From a virus (lineage: Duplodnaviria > Caudoviricetes), in the IMG/VR virus record IMGVR_UViG_3300020122_000144, positions 1-54,876 of that record: a stretch of 54,876 bases of DNA. One strand, given 5' to 3'. Under the pieces are notes generated by a model that worked only from the letters and a program-made list of their open reading frames with translations, did not search any database and was not told the origin of the DNA. The translations under genes were made by a program, and so were the position numbers. Shown here in pieces: positions 7,913 to 44,684 of the stretch (its first letter is position 1; every line of letters starts with the position of its first letter).

Positions 7913-8096
7913 GGTGCCCCACCACCCGAGGCCGCTGGCGCTGCCCGCTGGACCTCGACCACGACGGCGAGTGTGACGCCCGCGACGGCGAGCCCGAGTC
8001 GATGGTGACGCCGCGCGCGGTCAGGCCCGCTGCCGTGGTCCGCGTGGCCGGCGGTCGCTGTCCGACGTGTGATCAGCCGATGCCGGAGAAGACGCC

Positions 8097-8465
8097 GTGA
8101 CCTCCGCCCGCATGCTCTCACCGGAAGAGGTAGCCACCGAGCTCGGCGTCTCCCGGGCGACGGCCTACCGTCTTCTTCCTCAGCTCCGCCCAATCAAGGT
8201 CGGGAGCGTGTGGCGCGTGCAGCGTATCGATCTCGAGAACTGGATCAGAAAGAACCGCGACCAATGCCTCGACTCTTCAAGCGCGACGGAATCTGGTTCG
8301 CTTGGCTCCCCAAGCCCGGCGGAGGCACCCGCCGTCAAACGACGAACTGCACCGACCGGAAAGCGGCCGAGCGTCGCGCGGGCGAACTCGAACGCGAAGC
8401 CCTCGATCCGGCCCACGCAGCCGCGAACAAAGCCACGACCGTCGACGCGTGCAGCGAGTTCGTGA
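8097..8465 (+). CDS. xis: Excisionase-like HTH_17/MerR-type DNA-binding protein
   Basis: MLSPEEVATELGVSRATAYRLL...IKVGSVWRV...LENWI; overlaps the int start. Confidence 0.8.
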   Translation: MTSARMLSPEEVATELGVSRATAYRLLPQLRPIKVGSVWRVQRIDLENWIRKNRDQCLDSSSATESGSLGSPSPAEAPAVKRRTAPTGKRPSVARANSNAKPSIRPTQPRTKPRPSTRAASS

Positions 8466-9556
8466 GCAGCCGCATGCGCCGCGGGCGCGCGGAGGGGACG
8501 CTGCACCACTACCGGACGAAGCTCGGTCACGTCGTGCGGCTCATGCCAGCGCGGCTCGCCGACATCGACGCGGCGGCGTGCGAGCGGTTCATCGAGACGC
8601 GGCTCGCCGAGGGCGCGGCGCAGACGACCGTGAAGAAGGAGATCCGCGCGCTGGGAGCGACGCTCCGTCACGCGCGCCGGTCCGGCCTCTACAGCCGCGA
8701 CGTGGAAGCGACGATCCCCGAACTCGAAGAGACGTACAAGCCCCGCGAGCGCTTCCTCGCGCCGCTGGAGCTCGTCGCCCTGGTCAACGCGCTGCCTCGC
8801 ACACGTGCGGCACATGTCGTCTTCATCGTCGCGACAGGCGCCCGGTGGTCGGAGTCGACACGGGCGCGACTGGACACGGACGTCGACGGCCCGATGGTCT
8901 TCCTCCGCGGCTCGAAGACGAAGAAGGCGCCGCGGACGGTGCCGGTCCCCCCGACGATGCGCGTCGCCCTCGCCTGGTCGCTGGCGCATGCCCCCGGCGA
9001 GCGCTTCGCCGCATGGAGCAACGTCCGCCGAGACCTCGCGAAAGCCTGCGCGACGATCGGCGTGAACCCCGTGACGCCGAACGACCTCCGCCGGACGTTC
9101 GGCACGTGGCTGCGGCAATCCGGCCTCGCGCCCGACCTCATCGGCAACGCCATGGGCCACGCGGACGGGCGGATGGCGGAGCGAATCTACGGGCGCATCG
9201 GCCCCGCGGACCTCGACAAGCTCATCACCGAACGCGGCCCGGCGCTCGCCGTTAGCGTGCAGTCTGCACCTATCCCCGCGACTGGGCTGCTAATGGGTGG
9301 TGACGTGGCCGAATCCAGCGCAATGCCGGCGTTTCCTGAGACTGGCCGCGGGCGCCCGTTGCTGCAAAAAGCCTCGAAAGCAGCAGCTAATCGTAGTGCC
9401 CAGACACGGAATCGAACCGCGGACACGGGGATTTTCAATCCGCGTGGAACGGCAGTAAACGTCGGCGAATCGTCGGATTCTGCGCACACGTGGGCTGCTA
9501 ATGGGCTGACGTTCCGCGCTCGCGCCCGCCGCTGGCTGATGCGGAGCGCGGCATGA
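8264..9556 (+). CDS. int: Tyrosine integrase with internal attP
   Basis: TGAR, K, NDLRR (Asn in place of His in HxxR), MGH and RIY catalytic set; N-terminal arm-binding-like region. Confidence 0.93.
   Translation: MPRLFKRDGIWFAWLPKPGGGTRRQTTNCTDRKAAERRAGELEREALDPAHAAANKATTVDACSEFVSSRMRRGRAEGTLHHYRTKLGHVVRLMPARLADIDAAACERFIETRLAEGAAQTTVKKEIRALGATLRHARRSGLYSRDVEATIPELEETYKPRERFLAPLELVALVNALPRTRAAHVVFIVATGARWSESTRARLDTDVDGPMVFLRGSKTKKAPRTVPVPPTMRVALAWSLAHAPGERFAAWSNVRRDLAKACATIGVNPVTPNDLRRTFGTWLRQSGLAPDLIGNAMGHADGRMAERIYGRIGPADLDKLITERGPALAVSVQSAPIPATGLLMGGDVAESSAMPAFPETGRGRPLLQKASKAAANRSAQTRNRTADTGIFNPRGTAVNVGESSDSAHTWAANGLTFRARARRWLMRSAA
9283..9505 (+). repeat. 15-bp direct repeats TGGGCTGCTAATGGG (9283-9297, 9491-9505); probable integrase arm sites
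   Basis: Exact repeat on either side of the att core. Confidence 0.75.
9394..9441 (-). other. attP: attP core: 3' half of tRNA-Phe(GAA)
   Basis: Reverse complement GGA-TTGAAAA-TCC...CGCGG-TTCGATT-CCGTG-TCTGGGC-A gives anticodon loop, T arm and acceptor 3' strand; no 5' half. Confidence 0.9.
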
Positions 9557-10607: not shown

Positions 10608-11221
10608 GCAAGCCGATTCGAGAGTGGGCGCTGGAGACCGTCCCGAGCGACGACATGCTCTGGAAGGGCGGGTGGGGCTCGCAGGTGATGTTCTTCCGCG
10701 ACGACCTCCGATACCTGATGGGTTCGGGACTCGACTACGAGGACGCCAAGGGGCTCGGGCGGGTCATCTCTACGCACACGAGCAAGTCGATCGCGCTCCC
10801 CGTCGTCGAGTACGACCGCAAAGACATCGGGCTGCGCGTCATCCTTCGCGACAACTTCCACGACTGGAAGCTCAGCGTCATCAGCGAGAGGCCGATCACG
10901 TCGTGCTTCGACGGCCTGTTCCACACCACGCCGCCGGTGGAGCCCGAGTACACGGGCGACTACCTGTCGCCCTGCTACTTCGAGGGCTTCCCGCGCGATC
11001 TGGTCTTCGGTTACCTGTCGAAGTCGGACGGTCGCCGCTGGTCTGCGATGCCTAGCGGCCGTCACGGCGTGTGGACGACGCTGTTCCTCATCCTGCGCGA
11101 GTTGGGCGCAGTGAAGCCGCACGTCTGGAATACCAAGGCTGCGCACCGAGCACAGATCGACGCGGACACCGCGAAGCGCATGGCGCGTGCGGCTGCGGAG
11201 AAAGGGTCCGTGGAGCGATGA
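10604..11221 (+). CDS. Hypothetical protein upstream of queC
   Basis: AGGAG SD; globular-looking 205-aa ORF. Confidence 0.75.
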   Translation: MSKPIREWALETVPSDDMLWKGGWGSQVMFFRDDLRYLMGSGLDYEDAKGLGRVISTHTSKSIALPVVEYDRKDIGLRVILRDNFHDWKLSVISERPITSCFDGLFHTTPPVEPEYTGDYLSPCYFEGFPRDLVFGYLSKSDGRRWSAMPSGRHGVWTTLFLILRELGAVKPHVWNTKAAHRAQIDADTAKRMARAAAEKGSVER

Positions 11222-11952
11222 GCGAATCCAGTCGTAACCCCATGTCGAACCGCGCTGTCGTCGTCCTCTCGGGCGGGCTCGACTCCGTCGCGGCGCTCTG
11301 CTGGGCGCGCGCTCGCTACACGGAGCTCCAGGCGATCACGTTCGAGTACGGGCAGCCAGCGAGAAACCAGGAGGTGCCCGCCGCGCAGCGCTCCGCCGCC
11401 AAGTTGGGCGTCGGCTGGCGCGTCGTTGGGCTGAGCGACGCGCTGCGGCCCGAGAAGCCGGGCGGCATCCTTGGCGGCGTTCAGGACCACGACACGTCTC
11501 GCTTTGGCGGGGTCGATCGCGCCTTCGTGCCCGGTCGCAATGGGCTCTTCGCGCTGGTCGCGCTCTCGCACTCGTGCTCGTGGTGGCCGAACGGAAACGT
11601 CGACATCGTCATGGGCGCCTGCGCCGAGGACCAGGCCGGGTTCCCTGACTGTCGGCCGGCGAACCTCGACAAGCTCGCGATGGGGCTGCGGGCCTGCTTC
11701 GGACGATCCGTCACGGTCCGGCTGCCGTGGGCGGAGTCGACGAAGAGTCAGATCCTCTACGCGGTGAAGCCCGACGCGGAAGCGCTCTGGATCGTCCAGC
11801 GCTCTTACTCCTGCTATCGCGAGGACGGCCCGTGCCTGCGTTGCGGGGCGTGCGTCAAGCGGAAGGCCGCCTTCGACGCCCACCCGGACATCCTCGACCT
11901 TTCTCAGCGGACGCACATGACCGGCGGCGACCCCGCGCGGGCGGTCCGTTGA
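11218..11952 (+). CDS. queC: 7-cyano-7-deazaguanine synthase (QueC family)
   Basis: PP-loop SGGLDS, YGQ, VPGRN, FPDCR and Zn site CY-x5-CxxCxxC. Confidence 0.92.
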   Translation: MSESSRNPMSNRAVVVLSGGLDSVAALCWARARYTELQAITFEYGQPARNQEVPAAQRSAAKLGVGWRVVGLSDALRPEKPGGILGGVQDHDTSRFGGVDRAFVPGRNGLFALVALSHSCSWWPNGNVDIVMGACAEDQAGFPDCRPANLDKLAMGLRACFGRSVTVRLPWAESTKSQILYAVKPDAEALWIVQRSYSCYREDGPCLRCGACVKRKAAFDAHPDILDLSQRTHMTGGDPARAVR

Positions 11953-23137: not shown

Positions 23138-23559
23138 CGGGTGGCCGTCGCGGCGATGTTGAAGGTTCCTCGAGCGAGGATCGACGTCTCGCCGCTGGCC
23201 CAGTCGACGAGCAGATCGTAATAGGCCGTGATGGCAACACCCGCGTTGACCGCGAGTAGCTGTGCACGGGTAATCGTGATCGTGACGCCGTTGTTGTAGG
23301 CAGGCGCCGCCGGTCCTGGAGTGGTGGTGCCCGCGACCCACGCGAGACCTGCGCCGATGGTGAGCGACAGGAGTTGCGTCGTCGTGGCGTCCGACGTGGG
23401 CCGCACCATCATGCGCGCGGTGGCGTTGGTGAAGTCGACAGGAACGAGATCGTTCACGTCCTTCGACCCGCTTGCCGGCGGGCTGAAGTAGAGAAACGTC
23501 TCGCTAAAGTCGACACCTTGCAGCGCCTCCAGTCGCGTATTTGAGGCCGGTCCCGACAT
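23134..23559 (-). CDS. Beta-sandwich fibre adaptor-like protein
   Basis: QG.DF...VDFT..TARM.VR...YYDL...G.F pattern. Confidence 0.65.
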   Translation of the reverse strand: MSGPASNTRLEALQGVDFSETFLYFSPPASGSKDVNDLVPVDFTNATARMMVRPTSDATTTQLLSLTIGAGLAWVAGTTTPGPAAPAYNNGVTITITRAQLLAVNAGVAITAYYDLLVDWASGETSILARGTFNIAATATR

Positions 23560-24020
23560 CAGGCGTCGTCGTTCGAGGACTGGTAGAGACGCATGGTGCC
23601 GTTGCTGGCGCCGACGAAGCCGAGGAAGAGATCCGCGCCCTCCTGCAGCAAGAAGCGCTGCGGGGTCTTCGCGTAGATGACCCACGCGGTCATCGGCGCC
23701 GGCGTGTATACGCCGTTGAGGAGGGTTCCGACCGTCGCTATGTACGGGACGTTGCCGCCCGTCACGAGCGCAGCAGTGCTGCCGAAGATCACCCCAAGGT
23801 CGACGTCACTCTCGATGGTGACGAAGTTCTTGGTCAGGCTCTTCGGGTTGTCGTGCGTCGTGTAGTTGAACACCGCCTGCGAGACGCCCGTCGCGAGGGA
23901 GAAGTAACTGGCGGTGGCGGAGACGGAGACGGCGAGGACTTGGCCTTGCGGTCCCGATGCGGATGACGCGCGAGGGGCGGAGAGAAATGCCGACTTGCGA
24001 TTTGCGACAGGGAATGCCAT
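23559..24020 (-). CDS. Putative virion structural protein
   Basis: Beta-rich 153-aa ORF in the tail region. Confidence 0.7.
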   Translation of the reverse strand: MAFPVANRKSAFLSAPRASSASGPQGQVLAVSVSATASYFSLATGVSQAVFNYTTHDNPKSLTKNFVTIESDVDLGVIFGSTAALVTGGNVPYIATVGTLLNGVYTPAPMTAWVIYAKTPQRFLLQEGADLFLGFVGASNGTMRLYQSSNDDA

Positions 24021-24092
24021 TGAAACCGTGACCCCTTGTTTCCAGCCAGGCGTTACCTGGCATTTGAGGGGGCCCCGGTTTCAGTGGGGGCC
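24021..24092 (-). promoter_or_regulatory. SD-sequestering leader with a competing hairpin
   Basis: TGAAACCG/CGGTTTCA stem ending at the ATG; alternative GGCCCC/GGGGCC pairing. Confidence 0.55.
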
Positions 24093-24115
24093 GTAATTGC
24101 GAGCGTAGAGATTGA

Positions 24116-24799
24116 CTATGCGGCCAGCCTGAACGTGGGACAGATGAGGCCTAGGACACCCCACTCGCGCTTGCTGCAGTTGCACGACTTGCAGAGCGGA
24201 ACGATGTTGTCAGCTTCGTGGCGACCGCCACGCGAGAGCGCGATGACGTGGTCCATGGTGAGCGTCTCGTCAGAGCGTAGGCAGTGCCCGCATGCGTGAT
24301 TGAACCGGTCAAGGATCGCGAGCCACTCCGCGGCCGTCACGCGACCCGTCGTGATCTTCTGGACGCGACGATTTTCCGAGACGACGCGCTTGCGTTCCGG
24401 ATGCGCCCGGTTCCAGGCGAGCGACTTGGCCATGTTCGCTGCGGGATCAGCGTCGTATTTACGTTTCTTGGCTGCCGCAACTGCCGCCCTGTTGGCGAGC
24501 TGCCAAGCGCGCAGGTAGTCTCGCCGCTGGTCACGATTGGCCGACTGCCACGTTCGCATGTACTCGTCGCGACGGCCTTTGTTCTCGACCTGCCAGGCGC
24601 GCGCCCTCCCCTTGCTGTATTCGCGATTGGCGCGGTACCAATCGCGGCTGATGGCGTTGAGCTGGGCGCGGCTCTCCGGTGCGAGAAGAGCCCTTTTCGC
24701 GTTGACCCTATGCGACTTGCATGACCCGCAAAGAAGCCCGTACGAACGACACGAATTGTCGTTGGTCAGTTCGACCGAGCAGTCTTTGCAGGTGCGCAT
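24116..24799 (-). CDS. HNH endonuclease
   Basis: CGHC...TMDHVIALSRGGRHEADNIVPLCKSCN; N-terminal CxxC motifs. Confidence 0.9.
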   Translation of the reverse strand: MRTCKDCSVELTNDNSCRSYGLLCGSCKSHRVNAKRALLAPESRAQLNAISRDWYRANREYSKGRARAWQVENKGRRDEYMRTWQSANRDQRRDYLRAWQLANRAAVAAAKKRKYDADPAANMAKSLAWNRAHPERKRVVSENRRVQKITTGRVTAAEWLAILDRFNHACGHCLRSDETLTMDHVIALSRGGRHEADNIVPLCKSCNCSKREWGVLGLICPTFRLAA

Positions 24800-24812
24800 T
24801 TTGATTACCAGT

Positions 24813-25544
24813 TTACCAGTTGGTAACCAGGACATCAACCGTACTTGAATTCGCCGTATCGATCGTTCCCGCCGCGACGCGCGCGATGACGATGAGCGCC
24901 GCTGCGCCGGACTTGCCGATGGTGCGGCCCGCCGAGTTGGAGCCATAGGCGAGCGTCGACGTCAGCGTGCCGCCGGGCGTGTTCATCATGCACTGGACGC
25001 CGCTTCGGGTCGCTGACCACAGGAACAGGCCCTCCGTCGAGCCGAGCGTGTACGTGCCCGACGCGAGGGTGATGATGTTCTTGCAGACGCGAGGATAAAA
25101 CACCGGATCGTTGGTGCCGACAACGAAGCCGCCGGTGGTGGTCGCCATCGCCTTCCACGTCGAGCCAGCCCACAGTGTGCCCTCGGAAACCTCGACGGTG
25201 CAGCCGTTCTGCCCGGTCGTGCCGAAGGCCATCGAGGACAGGCGCGTGAGCGGCGCAACGCCGACCGCGACCGTGCCGACGACGTAGAGCCCGCAGTCGG
25301 CCGCGGTCGTCTGCGCCGCGAGGAGCACGATGTCACCGGCGATGTACGTGACGCCGTCCTGCGCGGTGCCGCCGGTCACGCCGACGAACGCGGTCAGAGA
25401 CTGGGTCGCGTAGCAGGCGCCGCGCGCCTTGAAAGCGGTCTGCCCGGGGGCCTGCCAAGCGGGGTAGCCGTCCGCGGCCGTGCGGAGGACGTCGCCAACG
25501 TTACCCGAGTTGATGGATCGCTCCGGCTGATTACCATTCGGCAT
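24813..25544 (-). CDS. Virion fibre/decoration-like protein
   Basis: DGV...GD.VLL..Q.....G.Y.V module typical of phage fibre proteins. Confidence 0.7.
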   Translation of the reverse strand: MPNGNQPERSINSGNVGDVLRTAADGYPAWQAPGQTAFKARGACYATQSLTAFVGVTGGTAQDGVTYIAGDIVLLAAQTTAADCGLYVVGTVAVGVAPLTRLSSMAFGTTGQNGCTVEVSEGTLWAGSTWKAMATTTGGFVVGTNDPVFYPRVCKNIITLASGTYTLGSTEGLFLWSATRSGVQCMMNTPGGTLTSTLAYGSNSAGRTIGKSGAAALIVIARVAAGTIDTANSSTVDVLVTNW

Positions 25545-25547
25545 GTG

Positions 25548-25644
25548 AGACTCCTGAAGCCGCGGTGAGCGGCGGAATAAATCGTTCGGACTCGCCGGCC
25601 TGGTTTCAGGAGCCGGAATCTCGAAGGCGATTTTTCAGGGGCCT
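25548..25644 (-). ncRNA. Structured cis-regulatory leader, copy A
   Basis: Homologous to 38479-38584; closing stem covers AGGAG. Confidence 0.75.
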
Positions 25645-25661
25645 ACGATCAGCAGACGTAA

Positions 25662-28412
25662 CTAGCGTGGATACTTCATAGCATTGAGAGAGGTCGTGTC
25701 AGCCATCTTGAGTGGCTTGTGCGGCGCTTTTCCGTGGGGCTCAGGAGACAGGAAAGAAGCCTGCATCAACTTCTGAGTCCCGGGGTCCATCTGTGGAATC
25801 CCAAGGAAGGTTTTGAGCGGCGCCTGCATGTGAGTCGGTACGGGCTTGGTGCGTGCGTCGAGCTCGGCGCGGAGTGCCTTGGACTGCTTGGCGTAGATCG
25901 CCGGATTCGCAGCCTGCAACGTCTCGACGTGCTGCGGGGTGATCGTCCCGTCCGCGACGAGCTGCAGCGCATGCTCGGGATGCGTCGCGATGTCGAACTT
26001 GCGATTGAACTGTGATTTCTGCTGGTCGTTCGGCTGCCATGCGTCCATGTCGACCCGCGGCGTCAGGCTGTCCGACCTCGGCGCCGGTGGCTGCGGGACC
26101 GCCTGCATCAGGTGTTGAATCGTGCGCATCGCGGCCGTCTGGAACGACTGCGCGGTGGCGGGCGCGTGGGGAGAGATGGGCGTAGCGGTGCCGGTGACGT
26201 GGGCCTGGAACGCGTCGGGGCTGCCGGCGGCATGGAGCACGGCTGCGCGACGCTTCTCGTAGGTGTCGTGATCGTGCGGCGGGAGGCCTGGCTTCTTGCG
26301 CTCGCCGGTGCCGCCGAGGGCGCGCTTGACGGCTTGTAGGCCATCGTCCATTTTCCCGAGGACGCGATTCTTCATCGCCTCGAGCTCGGCGAGGCGGGCG
26401 AGGGAGAGGCCTGGCTTGGTGACGGAGTCGAGCGCGAGGCCGATGATGCCGCCGACGCCGTGGCCTTTCTCGTCGGCGAGGAGGGCCTTGAGCTGGTTGA
26501 CGTGAGCCACTTCGGTGGACGTCTTGGCGATGGTCGTCGCCATCGAGGCAAGCGCCTTGCGCTCCGTCTTGATCGCAGCCTTGCCGGCGGCATCGAACGT
26601 GTAGTTTTTCTCGACCGCATCGAGGAAGGCTGAGCGACGGGCGATCTTGTCGCCGAACGCTTCGGTGTTGAGATCGCCGGACGGCTTGGTAAGGCCCTTC
26701 ATGAACCCGTCGATCGATGCGTCGTTGGCGCGGTAGATCGGCACGCCCGCTTTGGAGTCGTACGAGACGGTGTATTTGCCGTTGAAGTACTTCGACGTGC
26801 CGAGCATGTCGGTCGTGGCCTGATTCACTTCCTTCTGCGCGACAGCGCCGGCCCCGAAAACGCTCTCGTCTTCGAGAACGAGTCGAATCTTGTCGTAGAG
26901 GGCGTCGAACGCGTGCGCGGCGTCGGTGCGACCGAGCGGGTTCGTTCCGTACGCGGTCTCTTTGCCTACCGACCGCTTGAAGCTGTCGATCGCCATCATC
27001 ACCGACGCCGGCTCGTCCGCGCGCTCGGTCTTGGTAATGAGGTCTTTGACCTGCTTGCGGAGCCTCTTGATGCTCGGCTCGCCTCCACCCTTCGTTGCGT
27101 ACGAGTCGAGTTCGTCGATCGTCTTCGTCGCATCGTCCCAAACACCCGTCGCGGCCTTCTTCACCGGGGCGAGGTTCTCCGCGGGGACGAGCTTCGACAT
27201 CTGTTCGGCCTTGGCCTCGCCAAAGCTGGCATCGTCAACGATACGACTCGCCGCCAAAGACTCATCGAGGCTCTTGACGACCGATCGGGTCGCCTCGCCC
27301 ACCAGTTCATCGTGCTTCGCGAAGCCGTGCGGCCCGCGTTCGGCCCACGCCTTCTCGAGCGTCGCGCGGTGCGCCGGATCGTCGACCTGGCTGATGATGG
27401 TCTTCGCGGCCTGGTCGGTGATGGCGGATTCGCGAGGAAGCTTCGCCGCCCCCTCATCCGCCCCGATCTCCGAGGCCTCGATGAGCCCCTTCGGCGCCTT
27501 CTTCGTCAGCATTCCGCCGACGCCGTGAAGCGCGCCGCCGAGCACGCCGCCGATGAGCGCCCCGTGCATGAACGCGGAGCCCAGCGCCTCGCCAGTGAGA
27601 TCCGGATCGTCTTGGAGGTACTGCTTGCTGGCTTCCTGAGCGACGCCGACCACGCCGCCTTCAACCGCGCCGCGCGCGCCCCCGGCGATAATGCCCTGAG
27701 CGACGCGCCCCGCCGCGGTCTCGGCCTCGTGCCCGACGATGCCCTTGGCGATGCCGCCCGCGAGGTCGCCGACCTTGGCCAGCGCGCGCGTGGGCCCAAG
27801 GATGGCGGTCTCAGCGGCGCCGCGAAGGAGGCCCTTCTCGGCCGCGCGCACGCCGACGCGACCGGCTTCCGCCGCAGCGAGAGCGGGCGTCAGCGTGCCG
27901 GCGGAGAGGACATCAGCGGCGACAGGAGCGATGAAGCCTGCGACGTCGCCAGCCGTCGTGGCGGCGGGGTTGGCCTCGGCGCGGCCGCGGATGCCCTCAC
28001 GGACAGTGGGGCCGCCGATGCCTCCAATGACAGCGTTGGAAGCGCCGAGGGTCGCGGAGTCGAGCGCCGCGGTTCCGAACGCGAGCGCGGCTTGCGGCGT
28101 CGAGCCGTACTTCTGCTGCTGCTCGTGCTCGTGCCACTGCGCGCCGGTGACGGGCTTCGCGCCGTAGTTGGCGATCGCGTCGGGCAGTTCCTCGATGTCG
28201 ACGGTGCCGATCTTGCCGCCCGCCTCGATGGGGACGCGCGTGCCCTTGGCGTACTTGTATTTGCCGGAGAGGATCTGCGCGTGCGAGTCCGCCGCGTCGA
28301 CGACGACAGGCGCGTTGGTCTCCTTGTCGTAGAGCGTGACGCTGCCGGCCGGCACCGCGGAGGGTGTCGGAGCGGGTGCAGGAGCCGGGGGGCCGATGAC
28401 GGGGTCGGCCAC
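25662..28412 (-). CDS. Internal virion (DNA ejection) protein
   Basis: 916 aa, Ala/Gly-rich helical; third large gene after the nozzle. Confidence 0.7.
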   Translation of the reverse strand: MADPVIGPPAPAPAPTPSAVPAGSVTLYDKETNAPVVVDAADSHAQILSGKYKYAKGTRVPIEAGGKIGTVDIEELPDAIANYGAKPVTGAQWHEHEQQQKYGSTPQAALAFGTAALDSATLGASNAVIGGIGGPTVREGIRGRAEANPAATTAGDVAGFIAPVAADVLSAGTLTPALAAAEAGRVGVRAAEKGLLRGAAETAILGPTRALAKVGDLAGGIAKGIVGHEAETAAGRVAQGIIAGGARGAVEGGVVGVAQEASKQYLQDDPDLTGEALGSAFMHGALIGGVLGGALHGVGGMLTKKAPKGLIEASEIGADEGAAKLPRESAITDQAAKTIISQVDDPAHRATLEKAWAERGPHGFAKHDELVGEATRSVVKSLDESLAASRIVDDASFGEAKAEQMSKLVPAENLAPVKKAATGVWDDATKTIDELDSYATKGGGEPSIKRLRKQVKDLITKTERADEPASVMMAIDSFKRSVGKETAYGTNPLGRTDAAHAFDALYDKIRLVLEDESVFGAGAVAQKEVNQATTDMLGTSKYFNGKYTVSYDSKAGVPIYRANDASIDGFMKGLTKPSGDLNTEAFGDKIARRSAFLDAVEKNYTFDAAGKAAIKTERKALASMATTIAKTSTEVAHVNQLKALLADEKGHGVGGIIGLALDSVTKPGLSLARLAELEAMKNRVLGKMDDGLQAVKRALGGTGERKKPGLPPHDHDTYEKRRAAVLHAAGSPDAFQAHVTGTATPISPHAPATAQSFQTAAMRTIQHLMQAVPQPPAPRSDSLTPRVDMDAWQPNDQQKSQFNRKFDIATHPEHALQLVADGTITPQHVETLQAANPAIYAKQSKALRAELDARTKPVPTHMQAPLKTFLGIPQMDPGTQKLMQASFLSPEPHGKAPHKPLKMADTTSLNAMKYPR

Positions 28413-37251: not shown

Positions 37252-38475
37252 TCAGAACTCGACGACGCCGTTCTTGGCGGGGTTGGAGCAGTAGGTCGCG
37301 CAGCGGTAGAGTGTCCGAAATTCATACGAGTCCGCGCCCGCGGTGCGCAGCCACGACATCTTGTCGAGGAAGTCGACCTTGGGGATCTGACCCATCGACG
37401 GCATGAGCCACGTCGACATGTCGAGCATGTACGCCGTGCCCTGCGAAAGGAACGGGTCGGTCATGATCTTGATCGTGCCGAACGGCGCGACGTACTCGAT
37501 TGCCGAGAAACCGATCTGCGGGTTCTTGAACGCGGTCTCGGTCGTGATGCGGACGTTCGTCGTGAGGTCCTTCGAGATGTCGGCGAAGTCGAGATCGTTG
37601 ACGAAGAAGTGCGTCGGCTTGCTCTTCAGCCGGTGCAGCATCATGCCGAGCTGGATCATCGACTCCTTCTTCGGAGCGCCCTTACCCTGGTAGGGCACGC
37701 CCGCGAGGCGCACCGGATCGGCCGAGCGCGTGACGCCGTTGAACGACGTCCCGAGGACGGCGGAGCGGAGCGAGCCGGGGACGATCCACGCCGGGATGCC
37801 CTGGAACGCGAGGCCGAAGTCTCCGTCCATGAAGAGGTAATCGGTGTTGACGGGCGACGTGATGCCCGTGTCCCAGTTGCCCGACGCCGTGAGGACGCCG
37901 GTGAAGAGGTCGACCGCGGTGAGCGTGACCGAGCCGACCTTGACGGTGCCGGTCGTGCCGTCCGTGGCGCTCAACTTGATGACCTGGCCGACGCGGAAGT
38001 TGATCGCGTCCGACACGTTGGCCAACGTCTGCACGAGGCCGGTGACAGTCGTGGAGCCGTCGAGCTTGCCGATGGAGCCGCCGCCGTTGTGCCAGAGGGC
38101 TGCGCCGATCTGCTGGCCGATCGCGTCGTACGCGCCTTCGGTCTCGGAGATGACGGCCTTGACGAACGCGCCGCGATCGTTGCCGGTCTTGTCGAGGACT
38201 TCGCCGGAGACGAGCGCGCGGGCGTAGCCGCTGCGCCACGGGCAGGACCACTGCTTGTAGACCGACGCGCCGGACGACGTGAACGCCGTGGTGTCCGTCT
38301 GCGAGACAGCCGACGTGATGGAGGAGCGGATCGCGCCGAGGTACGCGGAGCCGGAGCCGCCGGTGTCCTTGGGCATCACGGCGAGCGCGGGCGACTGGAT
38401 CACCAGCGTCTCGACCTTCTTCGTCGTGTAGTACTGCTTTAGAATCGGCGTCGCCGCCGAGATATCGAATGCCAT
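37252..38475 (-). CDS. Major capsid protein
   Basis: 407 aa, LKQYY N-terminus, C-terminal CSNPAKNG, strong codon bias, position. Confidence 0.85.
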   Translation of the reverse strand: MAFDISAATPILKQYYTTKKVETLVIQSPALAVMPKDTGGSGSAYLGAIRSSITSAVSQTDTTAFTSSGASVYKQWSCPWRSGYARALVSGEVLDKTGNDRGAFVKAVISETEGAYDAIGQQIGAALWHNGGGSIGKLDGSTTVTGLVQTLANVSDAINFRVGQVIKLSATDGTTGTVKVGSVTLTAVDLFTGVLTASGNWDTGITSPVNTDYLFMDGDFGLAFQGIPAWIVPGSLRSAVLGTSFNGVTRSADPVRLAGVPYQGKGAPKKESMIQLGMMLHRLKSKPTHFFVNDLDFADISKDLTTNVRITTETAFKNPQIGFSAIEYVAPFGTIKIMTDPFLSQGTAYMLDMSTWLMPSMGQIPKVDFLDKMSWLRTAGADSYEFRTLYRCATYCSNPAKNGVVEF

Positions 38476-38478
38476 GCG

Positions 38479-38584
38479 AGGCTCCTGAGCCGCTCCGCGT
38501 TGGCGGGCTGCGGCGGTTGAAATCGATTCGGGCTCGCCGACCTGGAGTCAGGGGTCGGGTGCCGCGGGCGATTTTCAGGAGCCT
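38479..38584 (-). ncRNA. Structured cis-regulatory leader, copy B (capsid 5' UTR)
   Basis: Perfect 10-bp closing stem AGGCTCCTGA/TCAGGAGCCT covers the SD; homologous to 25548-25644. Confidence 0.75.
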
Positions 38585-38627
38585 GCGCAACGAGACGTCG
38601 TCGTCAGTGGACGTCTCGAATGTTGGA

Positions 38628-38656
38628 ATGGTGATTGGTAATCAGCGATGCGTCAA
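38628..38656 (-). promoter_or_regulatory. Candidate capsid promoter
   Basis: TTGACG-17 nt-CACCAT with GATTACCAA in the spacer; 9-bp hairpin at 38591-38618 just downstream. Confidence 0.6.
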
Positions 38657-38702
38657 CAGGCGCGATGTGCTAGTGGGTTGATTGGACATTGGAGGTCCAA
38701 AC

Positions 38703-38891
38703 ATGGCGGATGAACACATCACATCTGAGCAGCGCGCGGCGGTCGTCGAGGCTATTCACCGACTCGGTGTAAGCGAGGCCGCAAAGCGGCTCGGACTGTC
38801 CAACGAGTCCGTCTTGCGACTGGCCATTGGCGCAGGATCGCAGTCGGGGACAGAGGCGCTAGCTGCCTCTCGAATCGAAAGGTTGGCCTGA
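38703..38891 (+). CDS. Small HTH DNA-binding protein
   Basis: GVSEAAKRLGLSNESVLRL; GGAGG SD. Confidence 0.65.
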   Translation: MADEHITSEQRAAVVEAIHRLGVSEAAKRLGLSNESVLRLAIGAGSQSGTEALAASRIERLA

Positions 38892-39400
38892 TGGGTGTCC
38901 GTGTCGACATGACAGGGCGCACATGCGGGCGGTGGACCGTCACCGGCCCCGGGCCATCTCGCGCAGGGGACGCGTACTGGATGTGCCGGTGCGCCTGCGG
39001 CGTCGAGCGTGCTGTGGTGGGGAAAGATCTGCGGCGCGGCGGATCGGTGTCGTGCGGCTGCTATCAGGCCGAGGCGGTAAGCGCGGCCCTGACCACTCAT
39101 GGCCAGAGCCAGCATTCGCCGGAATATCAGGCGTGGAGAAGTATGCTCGGTCGCTGCTTGCAAAAACGGCGAGGCAGTTATCCGAATTACGGGGGCCGTG
39201 GCATCACCGTTTGCGATGAGTGGAAACTCTCTTTCGAGGCGTTCATCTCGCACATCGGGCCGCGCCCGTCTCCTGGACACAGCGTCGACCGCATCAACAA
39301 CGACGGCAACTATGAGCCGAGCAATGTGCGCTGGGCGACCCGTTCGCAGCAGCAACAAAACCGGCGACCCATCCTCCGCGCCGTGAAGGCGCCCACATGA
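38891..39400 (+). CDS. HNH homing-endonuclease-like protein
   Basis: CxCxCG, SCGC, YGGRGI.VC, DRINNDGNYEPSNVRWAT. Confidence 0.9.
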   Translation: MGVRVDMTGRTCGRWTVTGPGPSRAGDAYWMCRCACGVERAVVGKDLRRGGSVSCGCYQAEAVSAALTTHGQSQHSPEYQAWRSMLGRCLQKRRGSYPNYGGRGITVCDEWKLSFEAFISHIGPRPSPGHSVDRINNDGNYEPSNVRWATRSQQQQNRRPILRAVKAPT

Positions 39401-39579
39401 CCGACGGCCTCCGCCCGCCCATCCCCTACACGATCCGCTTGGTCGACGCGGCGCACTTCAACGTCGACCGCTGCGTCTCTTGCGGTCGCAAGCTGACGCG
39501 GCGCGTGGACGCGTATGGCCGGGCGTTCTACTGGGAGACCGACCACGAACCGTGGTGCGGCGTGCGGATGCTGCGCTAG
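39397..39579 (+). CDS. Small Zn-binding hypothetical protein
   Basis: CVSCG...H..WC; coupled start. Confidence 0.5.
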   Translation: MTDGLRPPIPYTIRLVDAAHFNVDRCVSCGRKLTRRVDAYGRAFYWETDHEPWCGVRMLR

Positions 39580-41479: not shown

Positions 41480-41490
41480 TGAACACCCCT

Positions 41491-41519
41491 ACGGTGCCTT
41501 GGTAATCGGCAGTCGTCAA
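41491..41519 (-). promoter_or_regulatory. Candidate internal late promoter
   Basis: TTGACG-17 nt-CACCGT with GATTACCAA in the spacer, as at 38628-38656. Confidence 0.6.
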
Positions 41520-41572
41520 TTGCCGCGCTCGGTCGCTATGTCGAATGGGAAGTGGGTTATCGAGAATGGCAA

Positions 41573-41800
41573 TTAGTTGGCCGCGATTCTCACGCTGTCG
41601 ATGTGTGCGCCGAGACTTGGGGCGGTCCCGTCAGATAGGCGCTTCGTCACGTGCTCCGCCTGAATCCAGCCGTCCTTGTCGGCAAGTCGAGTGAGGCGCC
41701 ACGGGCCGGGTGCGCAGCCGCAGTTCCAGCCGTGACCGAAGCCGATGCACTGGACCTCGATGAGATCGCCGACGCGGACCTTGGTGCGAGGCCGGCTCAC
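41573..41800 (-). CDS. Hypothetical protein
   Basis: GTGA-coupled to the scaffold gene. Confidence 0.55.
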   Translation of the reverse strand: MSRPRTKVRVGDLIEVQCIGFGHGWNCGCAPGPWRLTRLADKDGWIQAEHVTKRLSDGTAPSLGAHIDSVRIAAN

Positions 41801-42786
41801 GTCGGCTCCGGCAGCGACGCTGCGATGTGCGCGAGCTGCTGCTCTTCGGTGAGCGAATCCCACGCCGCGGGGGCAACGGCGCGCGTCTGCGCTTGCTTGT
41901 TGGTGAGCGTGGCGCCCGAGGGCTTGGCCTTGGCGGGGGCTGCGGGTGCGGCGGGAGCGGCGGCCTTCTCTTTCCTTGTCAGCTTGATGTACATCTCGGC
42001 CGCTTCGGCGATCTGCTCCGTCGTGAGGTGACCCGTCTTGTGGCCCCTATTCTCCATCCGCCGCAGCGCGAGGTGCGCCTTGTCTAGCTGTCCGTCCGTG
42101 GTGAGCTGAGAGAGTTCGGGGTACGACGTCGCATCGTCGGCGACCTTCGCAAAGTTGGCTTCGGCCTGCGCCACGAGCCTTGCCGTCTGCGCCGCCTTCT
42201 GCTCGTTCGCGAGTCGCTGTTCCAGCGCTGCCGCACGCGCATCGGAGGCGTCGAGCCTCTCCTGCAACCGCTGCGTCACCGCCTCGGGCGTGTTCTCCCG
42301 CAGCGCGCGCGCCGCAAGGTCGGCGTCGGTCATGCCGGCGTTGACCTTCAGCGCCTTGTACGGGTCGGCTTTGAACGCGGCCTCGCGCTCCAAGTGCGCG
42401 GCGTTCTCGCGCCGCAGCGCCTCCGCCTCGCGCGCCGAACGCTGCACGGCCTCGCGCTGCTCGGCTAGCGCCGCCTGCTGCGCGGCATACCGCCGCGAGC
42501 CCTCGCGTGCGACCTTCGCGGCCTTCGCGGCTCGCTCGAGCGCCTCGTCGGGGACAGGGGCGACGGGCTCGACGATCGGCTCCTCGGTAGCGGCTTCCTC
42601 CGTCGCCTCCGCAGGCTTCAGCGCCTCCGTGGCCGCCGCCGCATCCTCGTCGATGGTCGTGGCGGTCGGCTCCGGCAAGAGCGCCGACAGTTCCTCGATG
42701 GTGGGCTCCCCTTGCTCGGAGGCCGACTGCGTGATGATGGGCGCGCCCGAGAGGGCGATGGGGGCGGCGGTGGCTTGCTGTGTCAT
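41797..42786 (-). CDS. Capsid scaffolding protein
   Basis: Acidic N-terminus, long coiled coil, follows the portal. Confidence 0.75.
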   Translation of the reverse strand: MTQQATAAPIALSGAPIITQSASEQGEPTIEELSALLPEPTATTIDEDAAAATEALKPAEATEEAATEEPIVEPVAPVPDEALERAAKAAKVAREGSRRYAAQQAALAEQREAVQRSAREAEALRRENAAHLEREAAFKADPYKALKVNAGMTDADLAARALRENTPEAVTQRLQERLDASDARAAALEQRLANEQKAAQTARLVAQAEANFAKVADDATSYPELSQLTTDGQLDKAHLALRRMENRGHKTGHLTTEQIAEAAEMYIKLTRKEKAAAPAAPAAPAKAKPSGATLTNKQAQTRAVAPAAWDSLTEEQQLAHIAASLPEPT

Positions 42787-42791
42787 GATTT

Positions 42792-44684
42792 TCAGGCAGC
42801 TCCTAGAAGATTCTGCGCGGCGCTATGCGCCTGCATACGTGTCACGTCGTTCTGGATGTGCTGGCCCATGCCGGGCTGCTGCGGTGCGGCCGGCGCGGGC
42901 GGAGGCGTCATCGCTTTGATCTGCGCGGTCGCCGAATCCATCCACTGAATCATCTGGTCAAGACGGTCCGCCGGAACCGCGTTGTCGCGCGCCTTCAGAT
43001 AGGACATCTGCATCCACTTCAGAGCGTCCGGGAGATCCATCTGCCCGATCGGGAGTCTGAGCAGCCCCTTCTCGATGATGTTCGTCACGTCGGTCATCGT
43101 GTTGTCGTACGAAGCGTCGGCGTACGACCGCGATGCCTCGTCGTCGGGCATCGCCAGCATGCGGCGCCCCTCGCGCGGATCGATCATCTGCGCGTTCATC
43201 ATGGTCTGCACCTGATCGAGTCGCGCCGCCGGCTCGTCAGCGAGGAAGTTCGTCGGGTACATCGCGAGGACGTATTCCTCCTCGCGCATGTTGACGTCGC
43301 CCCACTTGATCGCGTCCATCATCTTGCCCGGCGCCTTCACCGAGAACTCCGGGTAGTCCTCGGCAATCTCGGCGGCGAGATGGATGATCTGCTGCGCAAT
43401 GCGCATGTACCAATCCTGGTACTCGGCATAGCAAGGCTTGAAGCGGGTGCTGGTCGCCTCCGCGTAGACCAGCAGCGAGCGCCCGGAATTTAGTCCCGGC
43501 GGCTTTTCTCCGGCCGCGTTCATCTGCGGCACGCCGACGAGCTCGAAGGCGCGGCCCCAGAGGCGGTCTAGGTGCGCATAGACGTCGTTGGCGACGGCGT
43601 TGGGTGCGTGGAACGAGGGAGGCGTGCCGCGATACCGAATGATCGACGCCTGCACGTCGTCAATCGCGTTGGTGTTGACGTTGCTGCTCTCCTCGCATAG
43701 CCAATGCCCGACCGCGTACATCTGCGCGCGCTGGATCGAAACCATCATTCGCGACAGCTCGACCTGAATCGGCCCGAGCTCGTCGGCCAACGACTCGCCG
43801 TGGATGCCCTGGATAGGCCGCTCGCGATACAGAATCTCGCAAGGGAAGCGGTGATACGTCCACTCCTCGTCTTCGACGCACTCGTCAACGCCGACCACGG
43901 CGATGACGTGGCGCCCGGCCGTCTCGGAGTCGGGAGGCAAGCTCCACGCCTCGACGACCACGCACCACTCCACGATATTCACTTGGTCGAACGACTCACC
44001 GACGTCATCGAACTCGCCGCCCGTGGCGTGCTCGAGAATTTTCGCGGCCAGCACGGGGTTCTTCTTCATGACCGACGCGGCATACGCGCGCTTGTCCATG
44101 AACTTGACGTGGTAGCCGTTCTGCGGGTGACCGTCCGCGGCCTCCTGATCGTCCCACAGCCACTCCCACGGCAGCGTCCGCTCGATGCCCACGCGCGGCT
44201 TCTTCGGTTCCGTCTTGTCCTTGAAGAACTTCACCACGCCGAACGTGAAGAGCGCCGAGTCGCGGGCGCACTGGTAGGCCTGAATGTGGAGCGACTGGTC
44301 GTAGCATGTGCCGTCGACGAACTTCTCGAGGCGCTTGGCCCTGCGCTGGATGGCGTCGTCGCCGCCGCTCGTGACGAATGAGACCTTGGGCCGGTCCTTC
44401 GTGACCATCGCCACGTAGGTGTTGACGACGCTCTTGACGACGTTGAGTGCGAGGCGTCGGCCGCGGGAAATCTGCCGCTGCCTGTAGAGGCGCGGGCTGA
44501 GGCCCATCATCGGTAGCGAGCCGTACATGCGCGCGGCGCGCAGCATGCCCTCGCGCGTCGTCGCCTGGTCGCGCCAGAGGCGCCCGGCTACGTCGGTCAC
44601 GATGGTCGCGCGCCGGTCCTTATTCTCTTCCGCTTGCCAGCAGACGTCCGCGTTGCCGTTATCGGCGTGGTTGTAGGTGCTCAT
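42792..44684 (-). CDS. Portal protein
   Basis: 630 aa after the terminase; G.P..GLNSG motif; Q/P-rich tail. Confidence 0.85.
   Translation of the reverse strand: MSTYNHADNGNADVCWQAEENKDRRATIVTDVAGRLWRDQATTREGMLRAARMYGSLPMMGLSPRLYRQRQISRGRRLALNVVKSVVNTYVAMVTKDRPKVSFVTSGGDDAIQRRAKRLEKFVDGTCYDQSLHIQAYQCARDSALFTFGVVKFFKDKTEPKKPRVGIERTLPWEWLWDDQEAADGHPQNGYHVKFMDKRAYAASVMKKNPVLAAKILEHATGGEFDDVGESFDQVNIVEWCVVVEAWSLPPDSETAGRHVIAVVGVDECVEDEEWTYHRFPCEILYRERPIQGIHGESLADELGPIQVELSRMMVSIQRAQMYAVGHWLCEESSNVNTNAIDDVQASIIRYRGTPPSFHAPNAVANDVYAHLDRLWGRAFELVGVPQMNAAGEKPPGLNSGRSLLVYAEATSTRFKPCYAEYQDWYMRIAQQIIHLAAEIAEDYPEFSVKAPGKMMDAIKWGDVNMREEEYVLAMYPTNFLADEPAARLDQVQTMMNAQMIDPREGRRMLAMPDDEASRSYADASYDNTMTDVTNIIEKGLLRLPIGQMDLPDALKWMQMSYLKARDNAVPADRLDQMIQWMDSATAQIKAMTPPPAPAAPQQPGMGQHIQNDVTRMQAHSAAQNLLGAA

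Follow-up and report, generated by a model that had tools for sequence, protein, structure and literature searches.

Why would a phage hide the Shine-Dalgarno (SD) sequence of its major capsid gene within a stable RNA helix, and why does the same arrangement recur before a second gene of the same genome? Both questions arise from a complete virus record of 54,876 bp with direct terminal repeats and 66.7% G+C (hereafter the window, that is, the whole stretch of DNA analysed), in which two non-coding segments share sequence and predicted fold: leader A, which precedes the capsid gene, and leader B, which precedes a gene encoding a 243-aa protein. To our knowledge, little has been documented in tailed phages on how the most abundant virion protein is controlled after transcription, and we know of almost nothing on gene regulation in myxobacterial phages.

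The phage and its likely host

The window encodes the functions collected, together with the coordinates of both leaders and their surroundings, in Table 1. The presence of an integrase suggests that the phage is temperate. No cultured relative appeared among 50,697 GenBank phage records, either by blastn or by tblastn with the capsid protein, and the host of this phage group is likely myxobacterial, given that a related phage-like region lies in the chromosome of Labilithrix luteola. In that chromosome record (G005) the region occupies about 21-38 kb, and parts of it recur, with identical scores, at the far end of the record (12,187-12,191 kb), which may mean that the assembly overlaps at its ends or that a phage genome has been joined to the chromosome record.

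Table 1. Features of the window, with positions, strand and remarks
Feature	Positions	Strand	Remarks
Large terminase, PrimPol/VapE-type primase, helicase, Dam methylase, SU10-type adaptor			Encoded in the window
Tyrosine integrase	8069-9556	+	Early region
QueC homologue	11071-11952	+	7-deazaguanine pathway; early region
Stretch without counterpart in the closest complete relative (G001)	23990..25780	-	G001 has 234 bp
HNH endonuclease ORF in the insertion around leader B	24116-24946		
243-aa gene	24813..25544	-	Behind leader B
AUG after leader B	25542-25544	-	
Leader B	25545..25646	-	Same fold as leader A; precedes the 243-aa gene
Leader B, P1 3' strand	25548-25557	-	Includes the SD
Leader B, P3	25559-25573	-	
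Leader B, junction	25574-25578	-	AUUCC
Leader B, P2 and middle arm	25579-25633	-	
Leader B, P1 5' strand	25635-25644	-	
Major capsid protein gene	37252..38475	-	407 aa; PF17236 SU10_MCP, E 5.5e-07; phrog_14242 major head protein
AUG after leader A	38473-38475	-	Capsid gene
Leader A	38476..38586	-	Structured 5' leader of the major capsid gene
Leader A, P1 3' strand	38479-38488	-	AGGAG SD at 38482-38486
Leader A, P3 hairpin	38489-38514	-	
Leader A, junction	38515-38519	-	CAACC
Leader A, P2 and long middle arm	38520-38574	-	Second CUGA copy at 38548-38551
Leader A, P1 5' strand	38575-38584	-	
P0 hairpin	38591..38618	-	Just upstream of leader A; 9-bp stem, 10-nt loop CACUGACGAC
Promoter-like block	38630..38700	-	TTGACG-N17-CACCAT; upstream of P0
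HNH endonuclease gene	38891-39400	+	phrog_374, E 8e-60

Two leaders with one fold

The original prediction, made from the letters of the window, held that two non-coding minus-strand segments of about 105 nt share sequence, and both lie where they had been placed, being about 80% identical (82 of 103 aligned positions, or 80%, in the pairwise comparison; 81% mean column identity in the alignment). Their likeness begins at the 5' strand of the closing helix P1 and ends at the start codon. Folded alone, each leader adopts a three-way junction, with -53.7 kcal/mol for A (z = -4.72) and -42.4 kcal/mol for B (z = -4.64), and none of the 200 shuffles of either sequence did as well. The arms are those that had been described. 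P1 contains the AGGAG SD and pairs AGGCUCCUGA with UCAGGAGCCU in A and AGGCCCCUGA with UCAGGAGUCU in B (the latter with one C.A mismatch and one G.U pair), ending 3 nt upstream of the AUG in both; P2 is AAAUCG/CGAUUU; the upper arm reads CCGA..UCGG in A and CCGG..CCGG in B, with CCUG-ANNC-CAGG above a 2-nt bulge; and the third arm, P3 (GCCGC/GCGGC), encloses a 16-nt interior in A and a 5-nt loop in B.

That the window holds these two copies only was confirmed with a covariance model (R1) made from five copies and run with filters off, which returned leaders A and B (93 and 87 bits) and, as the next best hit, a score of 17.6 bits; a 19-nt core pattern is found twice in the window, against 0.23 occurrences expected by chance. 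The element had not been recognised as a known family, and this holds for Rfam 15 (4227 models, gathering thresholds), with no match in the whole window. Permissive Rfam searches gave only mir-2518 around A, outside the leader (18.7 bits against a threshold of 61), nothing around B and, in four relatives, only psaA, inside the capsid gene (19.3 bits against 50). Since the reverse complement folds equally well or better in five of the six full copies, including those of the relatives presented below, folding energy alone does not name the strand, which was assigned from the SD, the start codon and the gene direction.

Predicted occlusion of the Shine-Dalgarno sequence

The central expectation, namely that the leader buries the SD of the capsid gene, is upheld by the folding models, in which a conserved structured element carries the SD inside its closing helix: in the ensemble, the probability that the SD guanines are unpaired is about 0 in all six full copies. 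RNA thermometers such as ROSE and fourU, which also keep the SD paired in a 5' leader, use weak and imperfect helices that melt at 30-42 °C. Unlike them, this leader is predicted to stay closed up to 65 °C, with a mean unpaired probability of the SD guanines of at most 0.023 between 20 and 65 °C in the six full copies, so that the thermometer proposed at the outset is contradicted by the model. Another proposal was that a second CCUGA could serve as an alternative anti-SD. It stands as a feature of the family, through L253, a relative with a reduced leader, where the minimum-energy fold uses the second CUGA copy and is 8.1 kcal/mol better, but not as a state populated at equilibrium in the six full copies, where the alternative lies 10.7 to 21.7 kcal/mol above the main fold. 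A riboswitch, for which a conserved ligand pocket and two folds of similar energy would be expected, was rejected on the same energies of the six full copies, four of which have no nucleotides in two of their three junctions.

When the energy needed to open the SD was ranked among 51 genes, a ranking made noisy by crude gene starts, leader A came second (21.2 kcal/mol) and leader B 29th (11.9 kcal/mol); many start regions look buried in this 67% G+C genome.

Relatives carrying the leader

Full copies precede the capsid gene in four further records: the IMG/VR records L006 and L005, with capsid proteins 87% and 79% identical to that of the window, the IMG/VR record L057, and L207. The complete 49.8-kb genome of L006 is G001, and L207 is the chromosome of L. 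luteola DSM 27648, where the leader (66.3 bits) stands directly before a GTG-start capsid homologue in the phage-like region. All full copies score between 66 and 110 bits under the model.

Reduced versions are found in two further phages. In L249, whose capsid protein is 42% identical, the hairpin GCGCUC-CCUGAAACCU-GAGCG is followed by a G+C hairpin and then by a GGAG for which two upstream strands are alternative pairing partners, and the fold is not better than shuffles (z = -1.2). L253, found through a pattern in the capsid N-terminus, has two copies of CUGAAAG, the second of which forms 11 bp with the SD, enclosing a G+C hairpin, in the minimum-energy fold (z = -3.95). The hairpin loop is CCUGAAA(C/G)C in both. 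Full and reduced versions have three things in common: a strand that pairs with the SD, a hairpin with a CUGAA loop and, ahead of the SD, another hairpin that is rich in G+C and free in sequence.

In total there are nine copies from about seven lineages (the window and four IMG/VR records with full copies, two IMG/VR records with reduced ones and one bacterial chromosome), and the distribution of the leader is narrow. Three of the 63 stretches matching the first DNA pattern have it. Capsid relatives at 25-34% identity show short, unrelated intergenic regions with no model match, and a metagenome scan yielded capsid relatives at 28-34% identity only. Another scan, anchored on the SD and the capsid start, gave at least 118 stretches; 80 of its loci, together with 10 loci of distant capsid relatives, held one leader, in an already known contig. 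Among 401 Myxococcota genomes, three have a capsid relative, and the loci outside Labilithrix, like a second locus in L. luteola, are 27-31% identical and have no leader. In four environmental DNA runs, short contigs reveal further relatives, although they are too short for counts; two contigs extend into the leader with many differences (X1 record 8 and X2 record 14), and some loose contig ends look like parts of it. One contig of run X4, with a loose end at window position 38089, matches a short piece within the capsid gene, and upstream on the minus strand this short sequence resembles the end of the P3 hairpin followed by UUUCAGGAG.

Conservation and covariation of the fold

Folded independently, all six full copies give the identical architecture, with -42 to -57 kcal/mol and z-scores of -3.5 to -4.9 in the five that were scored. 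P3 is a hairpin in every copy, free in sequence and length; its basal pairs are, by position, GC; CG/UA; CG/UG/GC; GC/CG; and CG/UA, so that both sides change at four of the five positions. The remaining arms were assessed in a model-based alignment that excludes P3. There, 83.9% of the cells pair, against 26-45% when partners are slid by one to three columns; both sides change in two of 25 pairs, which 250 of 500 shuffles achieve as well, and the covariation score is equalled by 18 of 500 shuffles. A structure-anchored alignment has a consensus energy of -18.75 kcal/mol against -2.15 +/- 1.56 (minimum -7.55) for 100 column shuffles, and a structure conservation index of 0.39 against a shuffle maximum of 0.20. 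Both sides change in seven of its 26 pairs, five of them in P3, where pairing is partly given by construction, as the ends were anchored on each sequence's own fold. Outside P3, these alignments thus point to little covariation. The changes in P1 all preserve pairing or loosen it a little, from G-C to G.U twice and from U-A to U.G once, with mismatches at both ends, and the A of GGAG faces U in two of the six full copies and C or a bulge in four. Over aligned bases, identity is 77-88% in the leader, 80-87% in the capsid coding sequence and 66-81% in the next 114 nt upstream; the leader thus equals the coding sequence in conservation and exceeds the stretch upstream of it.

In the middle arm, the second copy keeps CUGA(A) alone and not the CUCC part, and the matching UUCAG flank is missing in L057 and L249. 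Since pairing alone fails to explain why this CUGAA loop is kept, the more natural reason would be a factor or a tertiary contact.

Could the two leaders simply be a recent duplication that happens to fold in a G+C-rich genome, with no function? Sequence of high G+C content does fold readily, and the genome of the window has only two copies. Nonetheless, the leader is kept before capsid genes that differ by 13-20% in nucleotides, a reduced form persists in the two more distant phages (one of them at only 42% capsid protein identity), the z-scores range from -3.5 to -4.9, and at 80% identity between A and B the duplication is not recent. The chance that the element does nothing is accordingly considered very slim.

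Genomic setting of the capsid leader

The third-position G+C content of the capsid gene (GC3 0.94) is the second highest among the 71 ORFs listed. Just upstream of leader A, hairpin P0 is found in all five capsid-type full copies, with stems that differ and loops that start with (C)ACUG. A similar hairpin, with a 10-nt loop starting CACUGA and a free G+C stem, lies at 24071-24092 (minus strand), where it precedes a 153-aa gene (23559-24020) and occupies the same place in G001; a further CACUGA-loop hairpin lies at about 2915-2946 of L086. Genome-wide, neither hairpins with C(A/C)CUG loops (24 against 21.9 +/- 4.7) nor those with CUGAA loops (9 against 7.2 +/- 2.2) are enriched, and CMCTGAA occurs 12 times against 7.0 +/- 2.7, a count reached by six of 100 shuffles.

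Further upstream, the promoter-like block of about 70 nt recurs at 41490-41560 (minus strand), before a 100-aa gene. The duplicated block has the form TTGACG-N6-GATTACCAA-NN-CACC(A/G)T, and each of its copies lies at a module boundary in the late region; CCGTAGG, which comes after the copy at 41490, is like the first leader bases in other phages. A strict scan detected neither sigma-70 promoters nor intrinsic terminators near A or B. The block at 38630-38700 is a probable promoter, possibly a late one, and in that case the transcript would start before P0 and the whole of leader A would be in the mRNA.

The gene directly before the leader is scaffold-like in the L. luteola region and in L057. 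The homologue in the window (41797-42786, 42% identity) is separated from leader A by about 3.2 kb, comprising three ORFs and a reversed HNH cassette, and the comparison suggests that these 3.2 kb were inserted here while P0 and the leader stayed with the capsid gene. The cassette (38704-39579, plus strand) consists of a small ORF, the HNH gene and a 60-aa ORF, and runs against the minus-strand late block directly upstream of the leader. At the same place, L006 has a reversed ORF whose product resembles that of the small ORF of the window, and a start in L005 is reversed there too. The start region of the scaffold-like gene (42787-42806, minus strand; AGGAGCUGCCUGAAAAUCAUG) includes the 10-mer CCUGAAAAUC of the leader 5' strand, which may be chance.

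This setting bears on the possibility that the fold is only an element of stability or insulation, which protects the 5' end or separates cistrons while the ribosome overcomes an SD pairing that is a mere by-product. The great stability of the fold would suit such a role, as would an additional hairpin (P0) at what appears to be the 5' end of the capsid transcript and a P3 that is kept solely as a hairpin, and stabilising hairpins are a known device (PMC5371410). However, protection does not need the SD to be included, and yet all eight capsid-type and reduced versions, as well as B, keep the SD paired, through three different pairing strands across the versions. Moreover, from what is known of the effects of hairpin stability, 8-10 G+C-rich pairs over an SD should block initiation. 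A role in stability alone is thus regarded as improbable.

Leader B and the portability of the element

The 243-aa protein belongs to a widespread phage family with a conserved C-terminal domain of about 200 aa and a variable N-terminus, with 134 relatives (E <= 0.001) on phage-sized contigs; PHROG and Atlas leads hint at virion or fibre proteins, and it is probably a fibre-like virion protein. Its leader lies in an insertion of about 1.7-1.8 kb (23990..25780), which comprises the diverged end of a 916-aa gene, leader B, the 243-aa gene and the HNH endonuclease ORF. Leader B is 90% identical to the capsid leader of G001 and only 80% identical to leader A. As B lies in an insertion and is closer to the G001 leader than to A, the leader appears to behave as a portable expression module. 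The boundaries of the A/B likeness, at the P1 5' strand and the start codon, imply that the copied unit is exactly the RNA element.

The original prediction also saw in the two copies a means of co-regulating the capsid and the virion protein. As a general design this does not hold: B sits within an insertion specific to the window, G001 and the L. luteola chromosome have one copy each, and the leader is absent from all 33 viral loci in which a relative of the 243-aa protein is encoded.

The mobility of B could also be read at the level of DNA, the element being a recombination linker, a target of a homing endonuclease or a promoter or operator, and its RNA fold being incidental. A and B both edge insertions with HNH endonuclease genes, B is nearer to the leader of another phage than to A, the promoter-like block is also duplicated at a module boundary, and the antisense strand folds equally well. 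Against this, pairing is kept as the sequences of the arms change, and the stems of P3 and P0 differ per lineage while loops are conserved, which is the reverse of the pattern of a protein-binding DNA site. In addition, the internal spacing of the 5' block varies by 1-2 nt, the two HNH proteins of the window are unrelated, and the element always includes the SD and ends exactly at the start codon. Little probability is therefore left to a DNA-level feature.

A putative translational lock and its opening

The preferred reading, to which about an even chance is given, is that the element is a cis-acting structured mRNA leader acting as a translational lock, which would need active opening by a trans-acting factor. 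From the models we infer that RNA, and not DNA, would be the active form, that translation would be blocked in vivo and that an opener would act on it. In the late minus-strand transcript, GGC(Y)CCUGA would pair with UCAGGAG(Y)C, enclosing the SD within P1; the second arm would be a long imperfect hairpin, AU-rich in P2 and G+C-rich above it, with CUGAA at its tip; and the third would be the G+C-rich P3, free in sequence and length, just before the SD. At equilibrium the SD would be inaccessible, and no ribosome would start on the capsid gene until the lock were opened. Opening would remove or displace the 5' strand, giving a free SD and leaving P3 as a protective 5' hairpin, and the phage would use its second leader copy to express the acquired 243-aa gene inside an operon.

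A tightly locked capsid gene is paradoxical unless an opener exists; what, then, could open it? A host nuclease can be put forward tentatively; it could be RNase III, acting on the rod in which P1 and P2 stack coaxially, or RNase E, acting in the A/U-rich junction that precedes P3. RNase III needs a nearly uninterrupted duplex of roughly 20 bp or more, about two helical turns in length. In leader A, P1 and P2 stack without junction bases on the 5' strand into 16 pairs; most other copies have a mismatch or bulge in P1/P2, and beyond these helices the rod extends, across internal loops, into the middle arm. An RNA-binding protein of phage or host, or an sRNA, might instead read the CUGAA loop, an option considered only slightly less likely than a nuclease. 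Among 43 window ORFs scanned against Pfam, none was assigned to an RNA-binding family, and many have no family at all. That there is no opener whatsoever is rather doubtful. Upstream ribosomes, finally, are improbable as the opener: they would be plausible for B, L249 and L253 and, through their mini-frames, for L057 and L207, but A and L006 offer no such frame.

Ribosomes have a more direct role if the whole arrangement is one of long-range translational coupling, in which a ribosome ending an upstream frame unzips the P1 5' strand, so that the SD, about 90 nt further on, becomes free and the capsid is translated in the wake of the preceding gene. In the well-known cases of MS2 coat/replicase and E. 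coli rpmI-rplT, the start region of a gene is paired with a distant strand upstream, a pairing that upstream ribosomes can open. The leader resembles them in the pairing of a distant upstream strand with a start region, and several copies have a suitable frame: upstream of B, the ORF of the 916-aa gene ends at 25662, its stop codon 15 nt before the element; the scaffold-like gene of L249 stops at the UGA within the first CUGAAAC copy; in L057 and L207, 5-codon ATG frames (MSVGP and MPAGS), which may be chance, end exactly at the UGA of the 5' CCUGA; and in L253 an upstream stop lies 17 nt before the first CUGAAAG. Unlike in those systems, however, an upstream frame reaches the 5' strand in only some copies. 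The frame ending at that UGA has no ATG, GTG or TTG in A and L006 (25 and 40 open codons) and is likewise startless in B (8 codons), and the upstream neighbour gene is on the opposite strand in A, L006 and L005. An upstream frame ending at the 5' UGA was thus rejected as a general feature, being missing in A, L006 and B, and coupling as the explanation of the leader is held to be quite improbable.

Relation to known regulatory leaders

That a leader can hide an SD is a well-known principle. The conserved loop also recalls the boxB elements of the lambda and P22 nut sites, which are short G+C stems of free sequence with a conserved A-rich loop, repeated in the phage transcript. As in boxB, a loop is conserved over a free stem sequence, but the leader loops have 8-12 nt whereas boxB has pentaloops, and neither a boxA-like partner nor an N-like protein nor a terminator context came to light here.

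Parallels also exist for the proposed opening. Relief of an occluded ribosome-binding site through RNase III cleavage is established for E. coli adhE and phage lambda cIII, as is the persistence of stabilising hairpins on cleavage products (PMC5371410). The leader has in common with adhE and cIII a ribosome-binding site buried in a 5' leader helix and, as proposed here, an expression that would need the helix to be cut or remodelled, with a processed RNA that could keep a stabilising hairpin. It differs from them in that there is no sequence or family relation, in its three-way junction, conserved loop motif and two CUGA copies, and in that P1 and P2 together form only 16 continuous pairs in leader A. 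A second parallel is that of phage Mu, where Com, a small phage protein, binds a late-gene mRNA and activates the translation of mom (PMC6483171). Dependence of late-gene translation on an RNA-binding protein, only proposed here, would be shared with Mu; the RNA is unrelated to the one described in that source, and the target in the present case is the capsid gene.

Among the papers listed for phage capsid-gene leaders, Mu-gpT-DE and Labilithrix prophages, none describes such a leader in its title or abstract. The element stands apart from the precedents named above in its architecture, which combines a three-way junction with a duplicated CUGA and with a loop that is kept while its stems vary, and in having the capsid gene as the target, and it has no match in Rfam.

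Outlook

A bolder and rather unlikely view is that of a new class of factor-gated switch for capsid translation, in which the CUGAA loop would dock a late protein or nuclease, the SD would be handed between two CUGA locks (as between the main family and L253), and the whole would serve as a portable cassette for the late, high-level expression of acquired virion genes. The value of the finding is limited by the narrow distribution of the leader. If the lock is real, however, it would be a compact and transferable RNA part of about 105 nt by which translation is made to depend on a late event, it would offer a handle for finding the factor that opens it, and it would be a case of a regulatory RNA that moves as a module together with the genes that a phage acquires.
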